Below, one piece after another: positions 1 through 50,599 of a DNA stretch of 64,000 bases. The notes under the pieces were generated by a model. It made no database searches. It was not told where the DNA came from and saw nothing but the letters and a program-made list of their open reading frames with translations. This DNA comes from Escherichia coli. GTDB taxonomy: Bacteria; Pseudomonadota; Gammaproteobacteria; Enterobacterales; Enterobacteriaceae. Within the stretch, counting starts at the first letter, position 1; every line of letters starts with the position of its first letter. The stretch lies in the NCBI RefSeq assembly GCF_003334305.1, contig NZ_QOWS01000010.1, one strand, 5' to 3'. The position numbers and the translations under genes are program-made.

Positions 1-2972
1 AACACCAGGCGGTGCTGGCTGTCGTAGTGGTAGTGGTGGGTCCGCTCGTCGTCCGTCCGTATCACACCCGTCGGGATACGGTCCGTCTTCTCCGTCAGTC
101 TGCCGTATTCATCATAGTGGTAAACATAGTGCGCATCCTCTGCGATGCGGTTATCCGGCCACACTGTGAGTGTACTGTCCGGGTGCAGCTCCGGGTCCGG
201 CAGCCGGTTGCCCGCCGGGTCCGTGGCATACGGGATGCGGATGTCCAGGTCTGGTGCGAGGGTGCGCACACTCTCCAGCCTGCCCGTGGCGCTGTAGCCG
301 TATTCCCGCGTCTGTCGCGGGCCGCTGATGCGCACCAGGTCGCCGTTGTCACTCCACCCGTAGTCACGGTCATATACCAGGCTGTTCAGGTGCTGGCTCT
401 GTAACTGGCCTGCGGGGGTGTATGTGCTGGTCAGTTCGTATGCGGCATTACTGCCTGCCATGCTGCCGAAGCTGCGCACCGTCTCACGGTGCAGCCTGTC
501 CCGCGTATACTCGACCAGCGGCGTCCCGCCCAGCTTCATGCCCGCCAGGTAACCGCTGCCGTAGGTCAGCCACTCCACCGGCGGCAGGCTGTCCGGCGTG
601 ACGCGGTTTGCCAGCCCCTGTTCGTTGTAGGCGTGTTTCGTCTCATGCTGCCACAGCAGTTCCCCCGTCTCCGGGTTCTCCACCGTCTGCCGTTCGCCCG
701 TCAGGCGGCCCTTATCGTCGTAGCCGTAGTGGACAGCGACACGGTGGCCTTCGCTCAGGTGGCTGATTTCTCTCAGCCAGCCGTGGCCGTCATACTGCCA
801 CTGCTCTGCCGGGTCGCCGTTCACCGTCCGGTGCGTGATGCGGTCCGACGCATCGTAGTGCCAGAGGGTGACAAGCCCCTCATCTTCACTCTGCGTGAGT
901 TTTCCGGTCAGGTCATAATGATAACGTTGCGTCCGCCCGTCAAAGCCGCCCTGCTGTACCAACCGGTCCAGCGCATCGTAGCTGAAGTCGCTGTGACTGC
1001 CGTTCTCGTTAGTCAGACTGATGACACGTCCGGCAGCATCGTATTCCATGCTGCGCGTCAGCCCGCCCTGCGTGGTGCTGACCGCCTTTCCCCACGCATC
1101 GTACTGTGTCTCGCTCCGGTTGCCGTCCGGGGTGATAACGGCAGTCAGGTCGCCTGCGGCGTTGTACTCATACTGCGTTTCACGGCCCTGTGCGTCTTTC
1201 ACCGAGGTTAACCGGCCACGGTTGTCATAGTGGCGGTAAAGGCTGATACCTTCCTCGCGGTGAACCGCCGTCATCTGGCCGAAGCGGTCGTATTCATAGC
1301 GGGTCTGGTAGCCCGAGCAGTCAGTGAACGCCAGCAACTGCCCGTAGCGGCTCCACGTCATCTGCCGGGTGCTGCCCGTCGCATCCGTTGTCGTCGCCGG
1401 TAACTCACTGTGCGCGTCATCGTAGCGGTAGCGTACTGTCTCCCCGCTGCGCGATGTCTCCGATACCAGCCTGCCCGGTTCATCATATTCCCGGCGGCTC
1501 TCCAGCCCGTCCGGGTACACCACCGCCGTCAGCTGGTTCCCGTCGTTATAGTAAAATTTCGTCTCCCGCCCGTCCGGTGTGGTGATGTCCGTGATATCGC
1601 CGGACACCACATTCAGACCGTACTCTGTCCGCCGTCCCGCCGCGTCCGTCTGCGCCGTGAGCCTTCCTGCCGCGTCATACCCGCTGTGCGTGACGCTGCC
1701 GTCCGCCAGTTCTTTTTTCACCACCCGCTTCAGCCCGGCCCCGCCTTCTGTATGCAGCACCTCACGCCGGTTCAGGCTGTCGGTGACGGTGATGCGGTCC
1801 TGCTCATACTGGTAGCGGTAACTCAGGCCTGCCGGGTTAAGTTGCTCCACCACCCGCCCCGCATCGTCGTAGCGGTAGCGCATCTCCGGCCTGCCTGCAT
1901 AACGGTGCCCCACCATCCGGCCCCGGTATTTATCATCGTAAGTAAAGTGGCGCATCTGCGTACCGCTGCGGTCATACACCGCCGCCAGCTCACCGCGTGG
2001 CGTCCAGTCGTAGCACACCAGTGGCGCGGCAGGTAAATTTTCCGGGTATTCCGGGTCGTGCATCAGCCACACCGCCGAAAGACGGATACCGCTGTCAGCG
2101 CCGTATTCCGTACCGGGCAGTGTGTCGGGGAAGGAAGGAGCTGAGAGAGGGCGGGGACTGTCAGGGGAAGATAACGAAGCGGTGTGCGGTTTACGGGCCT
2201 CTTCCGCCCGCTGTGCCTGTGTGGTCAGTACCAGACGGAACTCCCGCCCGGCACCGTCCGTCACGCCGGTGATTTCCCCGGCCAGGTCACCGGCGGCCTC
2301 ACGCCGGTACGCCAGCGTCCGTCCGAAGCGGTCCGCCATCCCGGTAAGCACCCGGTACGGCGGCAGCGGCGCTGGCAGTAAGTCCTCAGCACCCGGCACC
2401 CGCTCAGACCACCCCAGTATCCACCACGGCCCCTGTGCGCTGTTGGTCGCCAGGTAAAGATGCGGGCTTAACCGGATATCCGGCGGCAGCGCCCCCCACA
2501 GCCGCGCCAGCGTATGGCCGTCCGGCTGTGCTGCCTTACCACCGCGCACCAGCCACATTGACTCACTGCGGCTGTACACCGCCTCCCCCGGCAGCAGCGG
2601 CTCAAAGTGAATGCTCCGCCCGCCGTTGTCGTTGAGTACCAGTGCATCATCGCGTATCTGTAAGCGGATATCAGAAGGCGCTTTCCAGCCGGGGCCAAAA
2701 ATTCCCACCGGCGCAGGCGTCTTCGTCCGGTAGCTGCTGTAGGTGCGGGAGAGAATGAACAGCAGCGGGTCGGGCAGCGCAAGGTCCGTCTCGCCGGGCT
2801 GTACTTTTGCACCGAGCAGCGGGTTCACCGGGTTGCCCGAGGTCATCCCGCCCGGACACACCGAGCACGCCACGCCAGTTGGCGCGCCAATTCTTACACC
2901 TGCCGAACCCTGGACAATGGGACCGCCATACTGAGTCATATCTCCCTGACGCGCCGCTGGTTTTCCGCTCAT
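1..2972 (-). CDS. rhsD: Rhs-family polymorphic toxin core protein, N-terminal ~990 codons (partial; continues beyond window start)
   Basis: Reverse-strand translation from ATG (complement of 2970-2972) reads [57 protein letters not shown]..., the conserved Rhs N-terminus; frame stays open to position 1. Absent from ORF track because no stop codon lies in the window. Symbol inferred from K-12 synteny (downstream of ybbP). Confidence 0.9.
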
Positions 2973-31955: not shown

Positions 31956-33887
31956 TCAAATGGGGCGGATACTTTCTTCATCCAGCTCCGCATCGAAGAA
32001 CCGACGCAGGGTCTGAATATTATTATCCGCAATAATGGACTCGCGCGCCTGCGCAAGTTTTTCTTCGTATATCGCCTGACGCCACTCCAGCGGCGTACGC
32101 ACCGCGGGATTATCATCTTCAACGATAGTCAGTTCAACCGTTGAACCTTTTAACGTGCTCAACGCTTCAGCCAGTTTTTGCTGTGCACCGCGGTTGTTCA
32201 AATGCCGCTGAGAGGAGCGCAAATGCAGACATACTGCGTTGTCGCTCTCCTCTTTCCAGGCATTTAAGGCCACCTGTTCGACCAGTTTTGGTAGCGAAAG
32301 TTGACTCACCTGTGCCGCCCACGCGTCGCGCTCAATGGCTTCTGCCGCCAGCTTCGCCGCCAGTTCCGGCGTTTTTTCATGTTCCAGCGCTTTTTTCAGC
32401 GCCTTCGGCGTGGCGACCACTTCTTTTTGCTGCATCACTGGAGTGGTAGCCTTCCAGCGATACGCTTCTTTTTTGGCTGGCGCTTTTTCCAGCGCCGATG
32501 GCACCGGACGCGCCTGAACGCGATCGGTGACCGAAGCCAGTCTTTCCAGCGCAGCGTTATTCACCGGCCGCGCGCGGGTAGCGGCTGCCGGTTCACTCTT
32601 TTTTGCTTTGGTTGCTCCCTGCACGCGCTGCAACTGCTGGCGCGCCGCCAGCACCTGGCTGGTGGTTTCCGGGAGCGGTACAGTCGGTGCCTGCTGCGGC
32701 GCTGATTGCGGTTGCGGCGGCACCTGGGTTGGCGTCATTACTGCCGTTGGCGCGACGGGCGCAAAGGACTGGCGTGGCACTTCTGGCTCAGGCAGAGGCA
32801 TACGTGGATGGAACGCCAGCGCGCGCAGCAGCGTCATCTCAACGCCCATGCGGCGGTCCGGCGCATACGGTAATTCTTTGCGACCAATCAACAGCGTCTG
32901 ATAGTAAAGCTGAATATCCGTCGGCGGTATGGTGCGCGCCAGTTCACGCATCCGCAGCTCAATGGCGGCCATGTCGTTGCCAAGTGCAGCAGGCGAAAGT
33001 TGTACCATCGCAATACGATGCAACAGGCCGAGCATTTCCACCAGCAACGCTTCCCACTCGATACCACGGGCAGCGGCTTCATTAATCAGCGCCATTACGC
33101 GCTCGCCGTTGGCCTCGACCATCGCTTCAACCAGCGACAGCGCCTGATCGTCGTCAAGCGTACCCAGCATCGCACTGACTGCCTGGGTTGAAACCTGGCC
33201 GTCACCGCTGGCAATCGCCTGGTCGGTCAGACTTAAGGCATCTCGCAGGCTGCCTTCAGCGGCGCGCGCCAGCAATTGCAACGCCCGCGGCTCGTGAGCG
33301 ATATGTTCTTCGTTGAGGATGTGCTCAAGTTGATGGCGAATTTGCTCGACATCCAGCGCCTTGAGATGAAATTGCAAACAGCGCGACAAAATCGTCACCG
33401 GCAATTTCTGTGGATCGGTCGTCGCCAGCAGAAACTTAACGTGCTCCGGCGGCTCTTCAAGGGTTTTTAACAGTGCGTTAAAGCTGTGGCGCGACAGCAT
33501 ATGCACTTCGTCGATCAGATAAACTTTGAAACGACCACGCGCCGGAGCGTACTGGACGTTATCCAGCAGGTCGCGGGTATCTTCAACTTTGGTGCGCGAG
33601 GCGGCGTCGATTTCAATCAGATCGACAAAGCGCCCCTGCTCGATTTCACGACAGTTATCGCACACGCCGCACGGCGTCGCGGTAATGCCGGTTTCGCAGT
33701 TTAGCCCCTTCGCCAGCAGTCGGGCGATAGAGGTTTTTCCGACGCCACGGGTACCGGAAAAAAGATAAGCATGATGAATACGCCCTAACGACAAGCCGTT
33801 CGCCAGTGCGGTCAGCACATGTTCCTGGCCGACGACGTCAGCAAAGGTTTGTGGGCGCCATTTTCGGGCTAAGACCTGATAACTCAT
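31956..33887 (-). CDS. dnaX: DNA polymerase III tau subunit (gamma by frameshift), 643 aa
   Basis: ORF track; AAA+ Walker A GTRGVGKT; recognised DnaX sequence. Confidence 0.98.
   Translation of the reverse strand: MSYQVLARKWRPQTFADVVGQEHVLTALANGLSLGRIHHAYLFSGTRGVGKTSIARLLAKGLNCETGITATPCGVCDNCREIEQGRFVDLIEIDAASRTKVEDTRDLLDNVQYAPARGRFKVYLIDEVHMLSRHSFNALLKTLEEPPEHVKFLLATTDPQKLPVTILSRCLQFHLKALDVEQIRHQLEHILNEEHIAHEPRALQLLARAAEGSLRDALSLTDQAIASGDGQVSTQAVSAMLGTLDDDQALSLVEAMVEANGERVMALINEAAARGIEWEALLVEMLGLLHRIAMVQLSPAALGNDMAAIELRMRELARTIPPTDIQLYYQTLLIGRKELPYAPDRRMGVEMTLLRALAFHPRMPLPEPEVPRQSFAPVAPTAVMTPTQVPPQPQSAPQQAPTVPLPETTSQVLAARQQLQRVQGATKAKKSEPAAATRARPVNNAALERLASVTDRVQARPVPSALEKAPAKKEAYRWKATTPVMQQKEVVATPKALKKALEHEKTPELAAKLAAEAIERDAWAAQVSQLSLPKLVEQVALNAWKEESDNAVCLHLRSSQRHLNNRGAQQKLAEALSTLKGSTVELTIVEDDNPAVRTPLEWRQAIYEEKLAQARESIIADNNIQTLRRFFDAELDEESIRPI
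32598..32604 (-). other. dnaX: Programmed -1 frameshift heptamer A_AAA_AAG in dnaX (gamma subunit)
   Basis: Reverse strand ...GCA AAA AAG AGT GAA...; -1 frame reads AAA AAA GAG TGA, giving ...KKE-stop (stop at complement of 32593-32595). Confidence 0.9.
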
Positions 33888-47354: not shown

Positions 47355-48911
47355 ATGCTGGTGAGAACACGACATCTGGTCGGCCTTATTTCGGGAGTAC
47401 TGATTCTTTCAGTATTGCTGCCTGTCGGCTTAAGCATCTGGCTGGCCCATCAGCAGGTAGAAACATCGTTTATTGAAGAGCTGGATACCTATTCCTCCCG
47501 CGTCGCTATTCGGGCCAATAAGGTGGCGACACAAGGGAAAGATGCGCTGCAAGAGCTGGAAAGATGGCAAGGCGCTGCCTGTAGCGAAGCCCATCTCATG
47601 GAAATGCGTCGGGTATCTTACAGTTATCGCTATATTCAGGAAGTGGTTTATATCGATAACAACGTTCCCCAGTGTTCGTCTCTGGAGCATGAAAGTCCGC
47701 CCGATACCTTCCCCGAGCCAGGTAAAATTTCGAAAGATGGTTATCGTGTCTGGTTAACATCGCATAACGATTTAGGCATTATCCGTTACATGGTCGCCAT
47801 GGGAACGGCACATTATGTCGTCATGATCGACCCCGCTTCCTTTATTGATGTCATTCCCTATAGCTCATGGCAAATTGATGCCGCCATTATTGGCAATGCC
47901 CATAACGTTGTCATAACCAGCAGCGATGAAATTGCTCAGGGAATTATTACCAGGCTACAAAAAACACCCGGTGAGCATATCGAAAATAATGGAATCATTT
48001 ACGATATCCTGCCCTTCCCGGAGATGAATATTTCGATCATCACCTGGGCTTCAACGAAAATGTTGCAGAAAGGCTGGCATCGGCAAGTCTTTATTTGGTT
48101 ACCGCTCGGGTTGGTGATTGGCCTGCTGGCAGCGATGTTTGTGCTGCGTATTTTGCGCCGTATCCAGTCACCGCATCATCGGCTGCAGGATGCTATCGAA
48201 AATCGTGATATTTGCGTGCACTATCAGCCGATTGTCTCCTTAGCCAATGGCAAAATTGTCGGTGCTGAGGCACTGGCGCGCTGGCCGCAGACAGACGGTA
48301 GTTGGTTGTCACCAGATAGTTTTATTCCGCTGGCACAGCAAACGGGCCTTTCTGAGCCATTGACGCTACTGATTATAAGAAGCGTCTTTGAAGATATGGG
48401 CGACTGGCTGCGTCAGCATCCACAGCAGCATATTTCGATCAATCTTGAATCCACCGTGCTCACCTCGGAAAAAATCCCGCAATTGCTGCGTGAAATGATC
48501 AATCACTATCAGGTTAATCCCAGACAGATCGCGCTTGAACTCACTGAACGCGAGTTTGCCGATCCGAAAACCAGCGCCCCGATAATTTCTCGCTACCGGG
48601 AGGCGGGCCATGAAATTTATCTTGATGATTTTGGTACGGGATATTCAAGTTTAAGTTATTTACAGGATCTGGATGTCGACATTCTGAAGATCGATAAATC
48701 TTTCGTTGATGCGCTGGAATATAAAAATGTCACGCCGCATATCATCGAAATGGCAAAAACACTGAAACTGAAAATGGTAGCGGAGGGAATCGAAACCAGT
48801 AAACAAGAAGAGTGGCTACGCCAGCATGGCGTGCACTACGGTCAGGGCTGGCTCTACAGCAAGGCATTACCGAAAGAAGATTTCTTACGCTGGGCCGAGC
48901 AACATTTGTGA
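47355..48911 (+). CDS. pdeB: c-di-GMP phosphodiesterase, CSS-motif sensor plus EAL domain, about 516 aa
   Basis: ORF track 518 aa (annotated start may be the GTG at 47361); N-terminal TM/periplasmic domain, C-terminal EAL domain. Confidence 0.92.
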   Translation: MLVRTRHLVGLISGVLILSVLLPVGLSIWLAHQQVETSFIEELDTYSSRVAIRANKVATQGKDALQELERWQGAACSEAHLMEMRRVSYSYRYIQEVVYIDNNVPQCSSLEHESPPDTFPEPGKISKDGYRVWLTSHNDLGIIRYMVAMGTAHYVVMIDPASFIDVIPYSSWQIDAAIIGNAHNVVITSSDEIAQGIITRLQKTPGEHIENNGIIYDILPFPEMNISIITWASTKMLQKGWHRQVFIWLPLGLVIGLLAAMFVLRILRRIQSPHHRLQDAIENRDICVHYQPIVSLANGKIVGAEALARWPQTDGSWLSPDSFIPLAQQTGLSEPLTLLIIRSVFEDMGDWLRQHPQQHISINLESTVLTSEKIPQLLREMINHYQVNPRQIALELTEREFADPKTSAPIISRYREAGHEIYLDDFGTGYSSLSYLQDLDVDILKIDKSFVDALEYKNVTPHIIEMAKTLKLKMVAEGIETSKQEEWLRQHGVHYGQGWLYSKALPKEDFLRWAEQHL

Positions 48912-48952
48912 ATTTTTGGGCTGACGGCACGCCGCACAGCCCGTCACGCTAC

Positions 48953-49306
48953 CTATTCGTCGATGATTGACTCGAATCCGCCATAGATCATTCGCTTGCC
49001 GTCAAACGGCATGGACTCGCCGAACTCTTTCATCCGTGGGTCCGACATCATCTTTTGAGTAGCAGCGTCGCGGACCTCTTTTGAAGGGTATTCAATCCAG
49101 CTAAAGACAACCTCTTCATTCTCTTCCGCTTTCACCGCCATACGAAAATCGGTCACTTTGCCATCCGGTACATCGCTGGCCCAGCATTCGACAATACGAA
49201 GCGCGCCAAACTCTTTAAACAATGGCGCAGCCTTAGCGGCCATTTCCCGATAGGCATCCTTTTTATCGGCAGGAACGGCAACCACAAAACCATCAACATA
49301 CTTCAT
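48953..49306 (-). CDS. ybaA: DUF1428 protein YbaA, 117 aa
   Basis: ORF track; SD ggagg upstream of ATG; recognised YbaA sequence. Confidence 0.9.
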   Translation of the reverse strand: MKYVDGFVVAVPADKKDAYREMAAKAAPLFKEFGALRIVECWASDVPDGKVTDFRMAVKAEENEEVVFSWIEYPSKEVRDAATQKMMSDPRMKEFGESMPFDGKRMIYGGFESIIDE

Positions 49307-49416
49307 CAGACATACCTCCGAAGCGTACTGCGCAGCCAGACAATTCTTGCGACGTCAGTTGTGGTTAAAGTTTAGCCATGTTGGGGTTTTTTGACGAAAC
49401 GGTGGGAGGCAGAAAT

Positions 49417-49530
49417 GGGTGGGGGCCCTGCCAGCTACATCCCGGCACACGCGTCATCTGCCTTGGCTGCTTCCTTCCGGACCTGACCTGGTAAACAGAG
49501 TAGCGTTGCGGGAGAACCAACAGAGCCCCC
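49417..49530 (-). ncRNA. ffs: 4.5S RNA (signal recognition particle RNA), 114 nt
   Basis: Reverse complement reads GGGGGCTCTGTTGGTTCTCCCGCAACGCTACTCTGTTTACCAGGTCAGGTCCGGAAGGAAGCAGCCAAGGCAGATGACGCGTGTGCCGGGATGTAGCTGGCAGGGCCCCCACCC. Confidence 0.97.
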
Positions 49531-49562
49531 ATTGAGAGCGTTGAGAACCAACGCGCAGGCGC

Positions 49563-49591
49563 ATTATCACTGCTGCCCCGGCTAATTGCAA
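49563..49591 (-). promoter_or_regulatory. ffs promoter (sigma-70)
   Basis: Reverse strand TTGCAA (49586-49591) - 17 bp - GATAAT (49563-49568); spacing to the mature 5' end fits the known ~24-nt RNase P-processed leader. Confidence 0.7.
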
Positions 49592-49606
49592 CCCATCGCG
49601 TGCCAG

Positions 49607-49996
49607 ATGCTGGTTTCTTGCGCAATGCGACTTCACTCGGGCGTTTTTCCAGATTATGCTGAAAAATTACCTCAGGAAGAAAAGATGGAAAAAGAAGATT
49701 CATTTCCCCAACGCGTCTGGCAAATCGTCGCCGCTATTCCCGAAGGCTATGTCACCACTTACGGTGATGTGGCGAAACTGGCGGGATCGCCCCGCGCCGC
49801 GCGCCAGGTGGGCGGTGTGTTAAAGCGTCTCCCTGAAGGCAGCACCTTACCCTGGCACCGGGTGGTTAATCGCCACGGCACAATTTCGCTAACCGGACCG
49901 GATTTACAGCGTCAGCGACAGGCATTACTGGCAGAAGGTGTGATGGTATCGGGAAGCGGGCAAATCGACTTGCAGCGTTATCGCTGGAACTACTAA
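49607..49996 (+). CDS. atl: Alkyltransferase-like protein (MGMT-fold DNA alkylation damage sensor), 129 aa
   Basis: Track ORF 49586..49996; start placed at MLVSCAMRLHSG (ATG 49607). Confidence 0.88.
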   Translation: MLVSCAMRLHSGVFPDYAEKLPQEEKMEKEDSFPQRVWQIVAAIPEGYVTTYGDVAKLAGSPRAARQVGGVLKRLPEGSTLPWHRVVNRHGTISLTGPDLQRQRQALLAEGVMVSGSGQIDLQRYRWNY

Positions 49997-50018
49997 CCCT
50001 CTCCGGGCGGAGAGGGTT
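49995..50018. terminator. Bidirectional terminator between convergent atl and ybaY
   Basis: Perfect inverted repeat aaccctctccg-g-cggagagggtt between the two stop codons. Confidence 0.7.
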
Positions 50019-50026
50019 AACGTCGC

Positions 50027-50599
50027 TTAATATTGCGTAGGAGCTGGAACTGCCGAAGACGGATTCACCTGAGTTGGTGAAGTCGAAGGTACGGTAGTCG
50101 TTGCACCACCGCTGGCCTGAACCGGCACGGCGGTTTGCTGCACCGGCACCAATGTCAGGTCGGCTTTAGTTCCGCCCTTGTTGATCACCGGCTGAACGGT
50201 ATCGGTAATAAATACCAGTTTGTCATTCACGGTAATCGCCGCACTCAACAGAATACGCGCGTTCGGCTGAACATCTGCCGGGTTAAATGGCAGAACAAAG
50301 CTGAATGGTGACTGTTTACCTTCAGTACGCACCGCTTTCTGCGCCAGCACTTTTGACGGTGCATCGGCTAACGACGCGTCAGAAAGTGTCACGGTCAGCA
50401 CAGCATCAGGCGGCAGTGCGACTTTCTGACGGATCCAGACGGTACCGGAGACATTCGGTTGCTGGATAGCAGGTTGTTGTGTTGCTGAAATAGACGTATT
50501 TGCAGCCGGGGCTGGCGTCTGAATATCCGCGCTTTTATCTGCGCAAGCCGCCAACGCAATCGCAACCGCTAAACCACTGGCCATGTGCACGAGTTTCAT
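50027..50599 (-). CDS. ybaY: Outer membrane lipoprotein YbaY, 190 aa
   Basis: ORF track; signal peptide with lipobox (LAAC). Confidence 0.92.
   Translation of the reverse strand: MKLVHMASGLAVAIALAACADKSADIQTPAPAANTSISATQQPAIQQPNVSGTVWIRQKVALPPDAVLTVTLSDASLADAPSKVLAQKAVRTEGKQSPFSFVLPFNPADVQPNARILLSAAITVNDKLVFITDTVQPVINKGGTKADLTLVPVQQTAVPVQASGGATTTVPSTSPTQVNPSSAVPAPTQY

Follow-up and report, generated by a model that had tools for sequence, protein, structure and literature searches.

The ffs (4.5S RNA) locus of Escherichia coli: its promoter, 5' leader and 3' trailer, and its relationship to the flanking genes ybaA and atl

Knowledge of ffs, of its promoter and of the leader removed by RNase P dates from the 1970s-80s, and in the classical literature the leader of the 4.5S precursor is given as about 24 nt. 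The binding of the RNA by Ffh and its role in co-translational targeting have been described for a sequence identical to the one analysed here (for example, PMC2921155 and PMC4737761), and processing of the 4.5S precursor by RNase P at the mature 5' end is also on record (PMC7049720). The pair atl-ffs has already been listed among divergent ncRNA/mRNA pairs (PMC7967276), with start sites at MG1655 positions 476422 and 476448 for ffs and 476311 and 476487 for atl. That study keeps the 129-aa form of atl, does not remark that 476311 falls inside that ORF, and does not assign the conserved block upstream of the promoter to ffs. The gene, the promoter, the leader and the divergent arrangement are all, in short, already known.

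Two further groups of described systems are close enough for comparison. Stable-RNA (rRNA/tRNA) promoters combine a G+C-rich discriminator with upstream activator sites. In ffs, the first five bases (GCGCC) of such a discriminator are conserved, as is a block at -50 to -70; an A/T-rich UP element is, however, missing from the interval between -38 and -59. In tRNA and stable-RNA maturation in E. coli, the 5' leader is removed by RNase P, as the literature describes for 4.5S RNA. At the other end of the molecule, the 4.5S helix with its ACCC overhang resembles an acceptor stem followed by NCCA, with an A/U-containing trailer directly after it; in contrast to many tRNA operons, no canonical terminator hairpin follows the gene.

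Coordinates below are those of the window, the whole 64-kb stretch of E. coli DNA that was analysed. The window is not MG1655 itself and runs in the opposite orientation, so that positions were converted as window = 525978 - MG1655 coordinate. Transcript data were all from MG1655. The Cappable-seq comparison covered MG1655 + strand sites (ffs, ybaA), and dRNA-seq start sites were taken as reported in PMC7967276. Compared with E. coli K-12 ffs (b0455), the window has the same 114-nt RNA, promoter, leader and flanking genes, and nothing of substance differs. Over approximately 480 bases compared (49250-49750), a single base distinguished the two strains, 49386, which is C here and T in MG1655. 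This base falls in the ffs-ybaA spacer.

Taken as a whole, the locus is best explained as ffs with a sigma-70 promoter, an RNase P leader and a Rho-limited trailer, flanked by independent ybaA and atl genes; we put the probability of this reading at about 90%.

Identity and structure of the RNA

The gene analysed here is ffs, which is present in a single copy and encodes the 4.5S RNA of the bacterial signal recognition particle. Mature 4.5S RNA is encoded on the minus strand at 49417..49530, where 114 nt (49530..49417, beginning GGGGGCUCUG and ending GGCCCCCACCC) matched the textbook E. coli sequence exactly as a string. The gene is annotated as ffs in MG1655 and in other E. coli, and its 3' end coincides with a published Term-seq end. 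A scan of the 64-kb window with Rfam covariance models placed RF00169 (Bacteria_small_SRP) at 49522..49426 on the minus strand with 68.1 bits (gathering score, 40) and an E value of 5.5e-13, covering the full model from 1 to 97; it was one of three matches above gathering score in the whole window. The first-pass annotation had identified the region as the 4.5S SRP RNA gene and had proposed a scan of this kind as a check. With the exact 114-nt match and RF00169 in hand, that identification is confirmed. Of 5426 complete E. coli genomes, 5425 contain the 1151 bases surrounding ffs, and the annotated order there is pdeB, ybaA, ffs, MGMT-family protein, ybaY.

The RNA folds into one long hairpin, which is capped by a GGAA tetraloop and has ACCC overhanging at its 3' end. 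Alignment of 32 distinct Enterobacteriaceae ffs sequences gave a consensus hairpin of 41 pairs, with compensatory changes at four of them. The domain IV/GGAA tetraloop region, GGUCAGGUCCGGAAGGAAGCAGCC, was invariant in these sequences save for one G/A position.

Two ORFs are present on the same strand, 49365..49703 (112 aa) and 49454..49636 (60 aa), and their existence is what could be said for a protein encoded here instead of, or besides, the RNA. Both traverse the promoter, the leader and the RNA gene, and the conservation of ffs follows paired RNA positions, not codons. Across 79 related loci, the two frames were anywhere between 0 and 285 codons long, with differing starts and stops, and both ORFs are therefore considered spurious. 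They had been dismissed as such from the sequence of the window, and comparison across genera agrees; the probability that either encodes a protein is negligible.

The ffs promoter, its upstream element and the leader

The core sigma-70 promoter of ffs was placed at 49557..49591 on the minus strand by consensus scan and conservation. It comprises a -35 hexamer, TTGCAA (49591..49586), a spacer of 17 bp, and a -10 hexamer, GATAAT (49568..49563), which together match 9 of 12 consensus positions, followed by the G+C-rich discriminator GCGCCT (49562..49557). This was the sole sigma-70-like match returned by the consensus scan in 48800-50100. Shuffled sequences gave a mean of 0.7 matches, so that a lone match is not above chance, and the case for the promoter therefore rests on conservation and on start sites mapped in published work. 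When 62 distinct Enterobacteriaceae loci, from approximately 25 genera, were compared, the two hexamers, the discriminator bases GCGCC and the start G proved invariant or at least 90% conserved, and variation was seen in the spacer and at the last discriminator base, T49557. Cappable-seq has a single strong start for ffs, U00096.2 475646 (U00096.3 476422), which corresponds to window position 49556 and has a relative read score of 217.7. Reanalysis of dRNA-seq data gives the same start, 476422, window 49556 (PMC7967276 Table S1). The start base, G49556, is the seventh after the -10 hexamer. The promoter that had been picked out in the first-pass annotation, TTGCAA-17-GATAAT, is thus upheld by conservation over the 62 loci and by two published start-site methods, and sigma-70 RNA polymerase initiates from it at G49556.

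The published start lies 26 nt upstream of the mature 5' base, G49530, and the leader of the 4.5S precursor is therefore 26 nt long (GCGCGUUGGUUCUCAACGCUCUCAAU, 49531..49556, minus strand). A leader of about 24 nt, processed by RNase P, had been expected; its type holds, and its length is corrected to 26 nt by Cappable-seq and dRNA-seq. A hairpin at 49554..49538 (minus strand) within the leader covaries, with 93% of cells paired against at most 52% in slid controls, and clean compensatory swaps were found at two of its pairs (UA/CG and GC/AU). The seven nucleotides immediately 5' of the RNase P cleavage site, UCUCAAU, were invariant. RNase P would remove this structured leader at 49531/49530.

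Further upstream, at -50 to -70 from the ffs start, approximately 20 bp were conserved as strongly as the core hexamers. This element (49606..49626, no strand assigned) reads GATGCTGGTTTCTTGCGCAAT on the plus strand and contains the palindrome TTGCGCAA. Its assignment was made from 17 loci in which 25-1600 extra bases separate ffs and atl. A motif search found the element at a fixed distance from ffs in 16 of these, at +76/77 from the ffs 5' end or at +82/83 where the leader is longer; in the 17th (L064), a degenerate copy was seen by eye at the same place. The distance from the element to atl ranged from 105 to 1706 nt in the 17 loci. Since the distance to ffs is constant while the distance to atl varies, the element is taken to be part of the ffs promoter, and from its conservation and position it would be predicted to have a role in ffs expression.

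Candidate binding proteins were compared with the element by eye. At its four key positions, the degenerate Fis consensus agrees with the 15-mer GCTGGTTTCTTGCGC. About one block in six would fit such a pattern by chance, and Fis was regarded as a weak candidate, as only the four degenerate key positions fit. The Ada box (AAT-N6-GCAA / AAAGCGCA) did not fit, nor did the marbox, the LexA box, the PurR, CytR and Cra operators or an UP element, in each case by comparison with the consensus sequence. A Salmonella MarA/RamA/SoxS ChIP-seq peak has been assigned to ybaZ; its motif lies inside ffs, and the peak was judged likelier to be an artefact caused by very strong transcription of the gene. A literature search for Fis control of ffs returned nothing specific, and no evidence of any factor binding the upstream element.

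The start of atl and the arrangement of the two promoters

In the K-12 MG1655 annotation, atl/ybaZ (b0454) starts at ATG 49607 on the plus strand and encodes 129 aa. This ATG is present in the window, where it falls inside the upstream element of ffs. As the first-pass annotation had noted, 15 bp lie between it and the -35 hexamer of ffs. From this spacing it had been concluded that the expression signals of ffs and atl interpenetrate, a conclusion which rests on ATG 49607 and which the evidence on where atl begins does not bear out in that form.

The atl unit was re-read as 49632..49996 on the plus strand, from the start site, the PGAP CDS, conservation and the MGMT/ATL family match. Its promoter would comprise a -35 hexamer TTCACT (49632-49637), a 17-bp spacer and a -10 hexamer TATGCT (49655-49660). 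One of the two published atl starts, MG1655 476311, corresponds to window 49667 (PMC7967276); it lies 60 nt into the long ORF and 18 nt before a second ATG, at 49685. Transcripts from 49667 cannot encode the long form, because this start is downstream of ATG 49607. A Shine-Dalgarno sequence, AGGAAG (49674-49679), lies between the start site and ATG 49685, from which a short form of 103 aa runs to the stop at 49996; the PGAP annotation of other E. coli genomes gives this same CDS, 49685..49996. No Shine-Dalgarno sequence was seen before ATG 49607 when the sequence was read.

Conservation was assessed in 80 loci. The ATG at the position of 49685 is kept in 77 of them, and a Shine-Dalgarno-like motif in 71. 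The pattern TTCACA-16..18-TATGCT, with at most one mismatch per hexamer, was found in 47/80. In 39/80 loci, the 78 nt that precede the conserved ATG contain a stop in the same frame. Only 18/80 retain an ATG at the K-12 position with its frame open; these belong to Escherichia, to some Citrobacter and Kosakonia, and to S. enterica arizonae. The atl product matches the MGMT/ATL family (TIGR00589, 54 bits; cut-off, 46.4). Alignments with solved ATL structures begin only at residue 30-31 of the 129-aa protein (PDB 2KIF, E 1.8e-28; 3GVA, E 1.7e-17), and the first 26 residues of the long form have no counterpart in these structures.

The short form of atl is favoured by the start site at 49667, by the conserved promoter, Shine-Dalgarno sequence and ATG, by the upstream stops, by the missing Shine-Dalgarno sequence at 49607 and by the structure alignments. 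The true start of atl is thus probably ATG 49685, and the K-12 start would then be 78 nt too far upstream. The N-terminal extension of 26 codons in the K-12 annotation (49607..49684, plus strand), which overlaps both the ffs upstream element and the core promoter of atl, is probably not translated.

The alternative is that atl is translated from ATG 49607, with its translation and promoter signals superimposed on the -35 region of ffs and direct interference between the two genes. The MG1655 annotation and the 15-bp spacing agree with this, as does the frame from 49607 to 49685, which is open in E. coli and in the 18 relatives noted above. A second atl start, 476487, has also been published; it corresponds to window 49491, inside ffs, would include ATG 49607 in its transcript, and is the basis of a reported 65-bp overlap and possible promoter antagonism (PMC7967276). 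The transcript from 49491 is, however, described as negligible in the same study, and no -10-like hexamer was apparent by eye before 49491. ATG 49607 also lies within the block that, at loci where the two genes are separated, accompanies ffs and not atl, and each of the points favouring the short form counts against it. Translation from ATG 49607 with direct mutual interference is accordingly considered improbable, and a minor long form may arise from the rare transcript starting at 49491.

If atl is transcribed from 49667 and translated from ATG 49685, its promoter and that of ffs stand back-to-back and are not interleaved. A distance of 40 bp then separates the -35 hexamers of the core promoters, and one of 111 bp their start sites. 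Transcription of atl would proceed divergently from 49667, with translation most likely from ATG 49685.

Formation of the 3' end and the downstream gene ybaA

The downstream gene, ybaA, has its ATG at 49306 and its CDS extends to 48953 on the minus strand (117 aa), preceded by the Shine-Dalgarno sequence GGAGG. The distance from the ffs 3' end to this ATG is 110 nt. No intrinsic terminator was found in 49307-49416 by consensus scan, and the MFE fold likewise showed no such hairpin; the first-pass description of ybaA as following ffs on the same strand at 110 nt, with no obvious intrinsic terminator between, was therefore accurate. Published Term-seq data place a dominant, very strong 3' end at MG1655 476561, window 49417, and contain no other + strand (MG1655) 3' end between 49417 and ybaA. 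Two candidate structures were rejected. The only terminator-like match, at 49539..49525, straddles the leader/RNA junction and was ascribed to chance, and pairing of leader AAUGGG with trailer CCCAUU as a terminator-extending helix would compete with the 10-bp native closing stem.

Directly after the mature 3' end, a 9-nt trailer (AUUUCUGCC, 49408..49416, minus strand) was kept across the 62 loci with the consensus A(U/A)UU(C/G)UG(C/G)N, and homology stops right after it. This pattern of conservation suggests that the nine nucleotides, which would be removed in 3' maturation, may act as a pause, weak termination or endonuclease signal. The untranslated trailer as a whole (49337..49416, minus strand) is C-rich and G-poor and resembles in composition a Rho loading (rut) site. 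The 80 nt of the trailer have 31% C and 14% G, which puts C minus G in the top 2.3% of 80-nt windows. Trailers across 79 loci had a mean C of 0.27 and G of 0.15, with C exceeding G in 71/79, and their sequences were not homologous. As judged from composition, the trailer would fit a Rho loading site.

The study that supplied the Term-seq end also places, by DirectRNA-seq, a Rho termination region at MG1655 476684, window 49294, 12 nt into ybaA; the position is approximate, as 800-nt windows were used. Reads upstream and downstream of 49294 were 2288 and 31 without bicyclomycin and 2599 and 101 with it, in 800-nt windows in which ffs and ybaA transcripts are not separable. The Rho score at this position was 2.87 (p 6.7e-8), the 800-nt windows being dominated by the abundant 4.5S signal. 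Part of the bicyclomycin effect could concern ybaA's own transcript.

The 3' end of ffs would thus be formed without a canonical intrinsic terminator. Polymerase would enter the C-rich, G-poor untranslated trailer, and Rho would terminate transcription near the ybaA start. Nucleases would afterwards cleave the trailer and/or shorten it to the ACCC end at 49417. A literature search for RNase E cleavage at ffs returned nothing specific.

A different account of the same end is that the 4.5S helix together with ACCC-AUUUCU acts as a weak, non-canonical terminator or pause, with most ends lying 3-5 nt past the mature end and trimmed by exonucleases, and with Rho taking the leak. A very stable G+C-rich helix does close 4 nt before the mature 3' end, and the next nine nucleotides are conserved across genera with nothing conserved beyond them. 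Li, Pandit and Deutscher reportedly found in 1998 that 4.5S precursors need only short 3' exonucleolytic trimming, which also counts for such a terminator. The U-rich stretch is, however, short and interrupted, ACCC intervenes between the stem and the U's, and the consensus scan does not call the site; many genera have AAUUCUG, with even fewer U's, and conservation of the trailer could equally mean an endonuclease site. We consider a weak terminator at this position rather unlikely, and prefer Rho termination followed by cutting and/or trimming.

The absence of an intrinsic-terminator-like site between two genes on the same strand, 110 nt apart, also raises the question of an ffs-ybaA operon, in which most expression of ybaA would come from transcripts that begin at the strong ffs promoter and read through. 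A check of start-site and Term-seq data for such read-through had been proposed in the first-pass annotation. The published data answer it in part: some signal does pass into ybaA, increasing approximately threefold when Rho is inhibited. It is small and Rho-limited, with downstream reads amounting to approximately 1.4% of upstream reads (31 vs 2288) without bicyclomycin, in 800-nt windows centred 12 nt into ybaA. In addition, ybaA has its own Cappable-seq start at U00096.2 475842, window 49360, with a relative read score of 19.8. This start is 54 nt before the ATG, and the ybaA transcription unit was accordingly drawn as 48953..49360 (minus strand) from the 117-aa ORF, the annotation and the Cappable-seq start. 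The adjacency of ffs and ybaA is confined to Escherichia, different genes following ffs in the other 70-odd loci, and for this reason co-transcription of the two is not a conserved design. In S. enterica arizonae, an integrase-like gene follows ffs. Read-through from ffs is not supported as a likely route of ybaA expression, and an operon of the two genes is very improbable. Both ybaA and atl would instead be independent units with their own promoters. For operon calls, the missing intrinsic terminator does not on its own make ffs-ybaA an operon.

The conserved upstream element and the conserved 3' trailer can be brought into a single, more tentative proposal, to which we give a little less than an even chance. 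The sequence GATGCTGGTTT(C/A)TTG(C/T)GCAA at -50 to -70 would be an undescribed Enterobacteriaceae element that binds an activator (Fis or another) setting 4.5S output; it would cause the conservation of ATG 49607, which would in turn have misled the K-12 annotation of atl. The 9-nt trailer would be a processing or pause signal acting without a canonical terminator.

The annotation of atl affects the design of constructs and knock-outs and the reading of promoter overlap, and deleting the 'whole ORF' of atl takes out the upstream element of ffs, an essential gene. This element and the 3' trailer offer testable handles on how an essential stable RNA is expressed and how its 3' end is formed.

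Variation at the ybaA-ffs-atl locus

The region 49250-49750 was compared with that of the K-12 reference strain MG1655. Over approximately 480 compared bases the sole difference was at 49386, which is C in the window and T in MG1655; this base belongs to the spacer between ffs and ybaA and precedes the start site of ybaA. Among 5425 E. coli genomes, 67 lacked the 1151-bp ybaA-ffs-atl stretch as a single piece (at least 80% covered), and it is possible that these include insertions or rearrangements at the locus. Two matches to the stretch were located on plasmids. An Rfam scan of the whole window additionally returned the programmed frameshift element of dnaX (96.8 bits, 32559-32623, reverse strand) and the sRNA sroB/ChiX (82.1 bits, 18742-18825, reverse strand), both of which are expected in this region of the E. 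coli chromosome.

The 4.5S RNA precursor and the DNA beyond it

Within its 26-nt leader, the precursor of 4.5S RNA carries a hairpin (49538-49554, reverse strand) in which compensatory base changes were seen across genera; selection thus acts on the structure itself. The only terminator-like match from a consensus scan (49525-49539, reverse strand) spans the junction between leader and mature RNA and was discounted as a chance match. At the other end, the nine bases adjoining the mature 3' end, AUUUCUGCC (49408-49416, reverse strand), are kept across genera, with homology ending immediately beyond them. These bases may signal processing, pausing or weak termination.

In the Enterobacteriaceae set, the comparison covered 1045-2133 (reverse strand) of locus L017 and the DNA 3' of ffs in loci L007 to L082. 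This flank varies by genus, and ybaA is the next gene only in Escherichia. In the Enterobacter, Klebsiella and Kluyvera loci that were inspected, ffs is followed by an 83-aa ORF, and a related ORF of 123 aa is found downstream of ffs in Citrobacter sedlakii. In S. enterica arizonae a tyrosine-recombinase-like gene lies approximately 100 nt past ffs. These differences suggest that DNA is inserted or replaced at the 3' flank of ffs, much as happens at tRNA genes.

Signals attributed to atl that map within ffs

The motif GCCCTGCCAGCTACA of a published S. Typhimurium MarA/RamA/SoxS ChIP-seq peak, attributed to ybaZ (atl), falls within ffs at 49425-49439 (forward strand). A real marbox at this position is the less favoured reading, and the peak is likely to be an artefact that stems from the very high level of transcription here. 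A published minor 'atl' start site at 49491 (forward strand) is also within ffs, on the antisense strand. Inspection by eye showed no -10-like hexamer before this site, which may represent antisense noise or a library artefact of an abundant RNA.

The ffs upstream block and the atl start codon

A 20-bp block, GATGCTGGTTTCTTGCGCAAT (49606-49626), containing the palindrome TTGCGCAA, is kept across the Enterobacteriaceae. Its distance to ffs is constant (-50 to -70), even where atl is displaced. The conserved atl start is the ATG at 49685, giving a protein of 103 aa, and the same call is made by PGAP in other E. coli genomes. The K-12 reference start (129 aa) is probably placed 78 nt too far upstream, the extra N-terminal stretch corresponding to 49607-49684 (forward strand). 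Deletion of the K-12-annotated 'whole ORF' of atl/ybaZ would take out the conserved block upstream of ffs, which is an essential gene.
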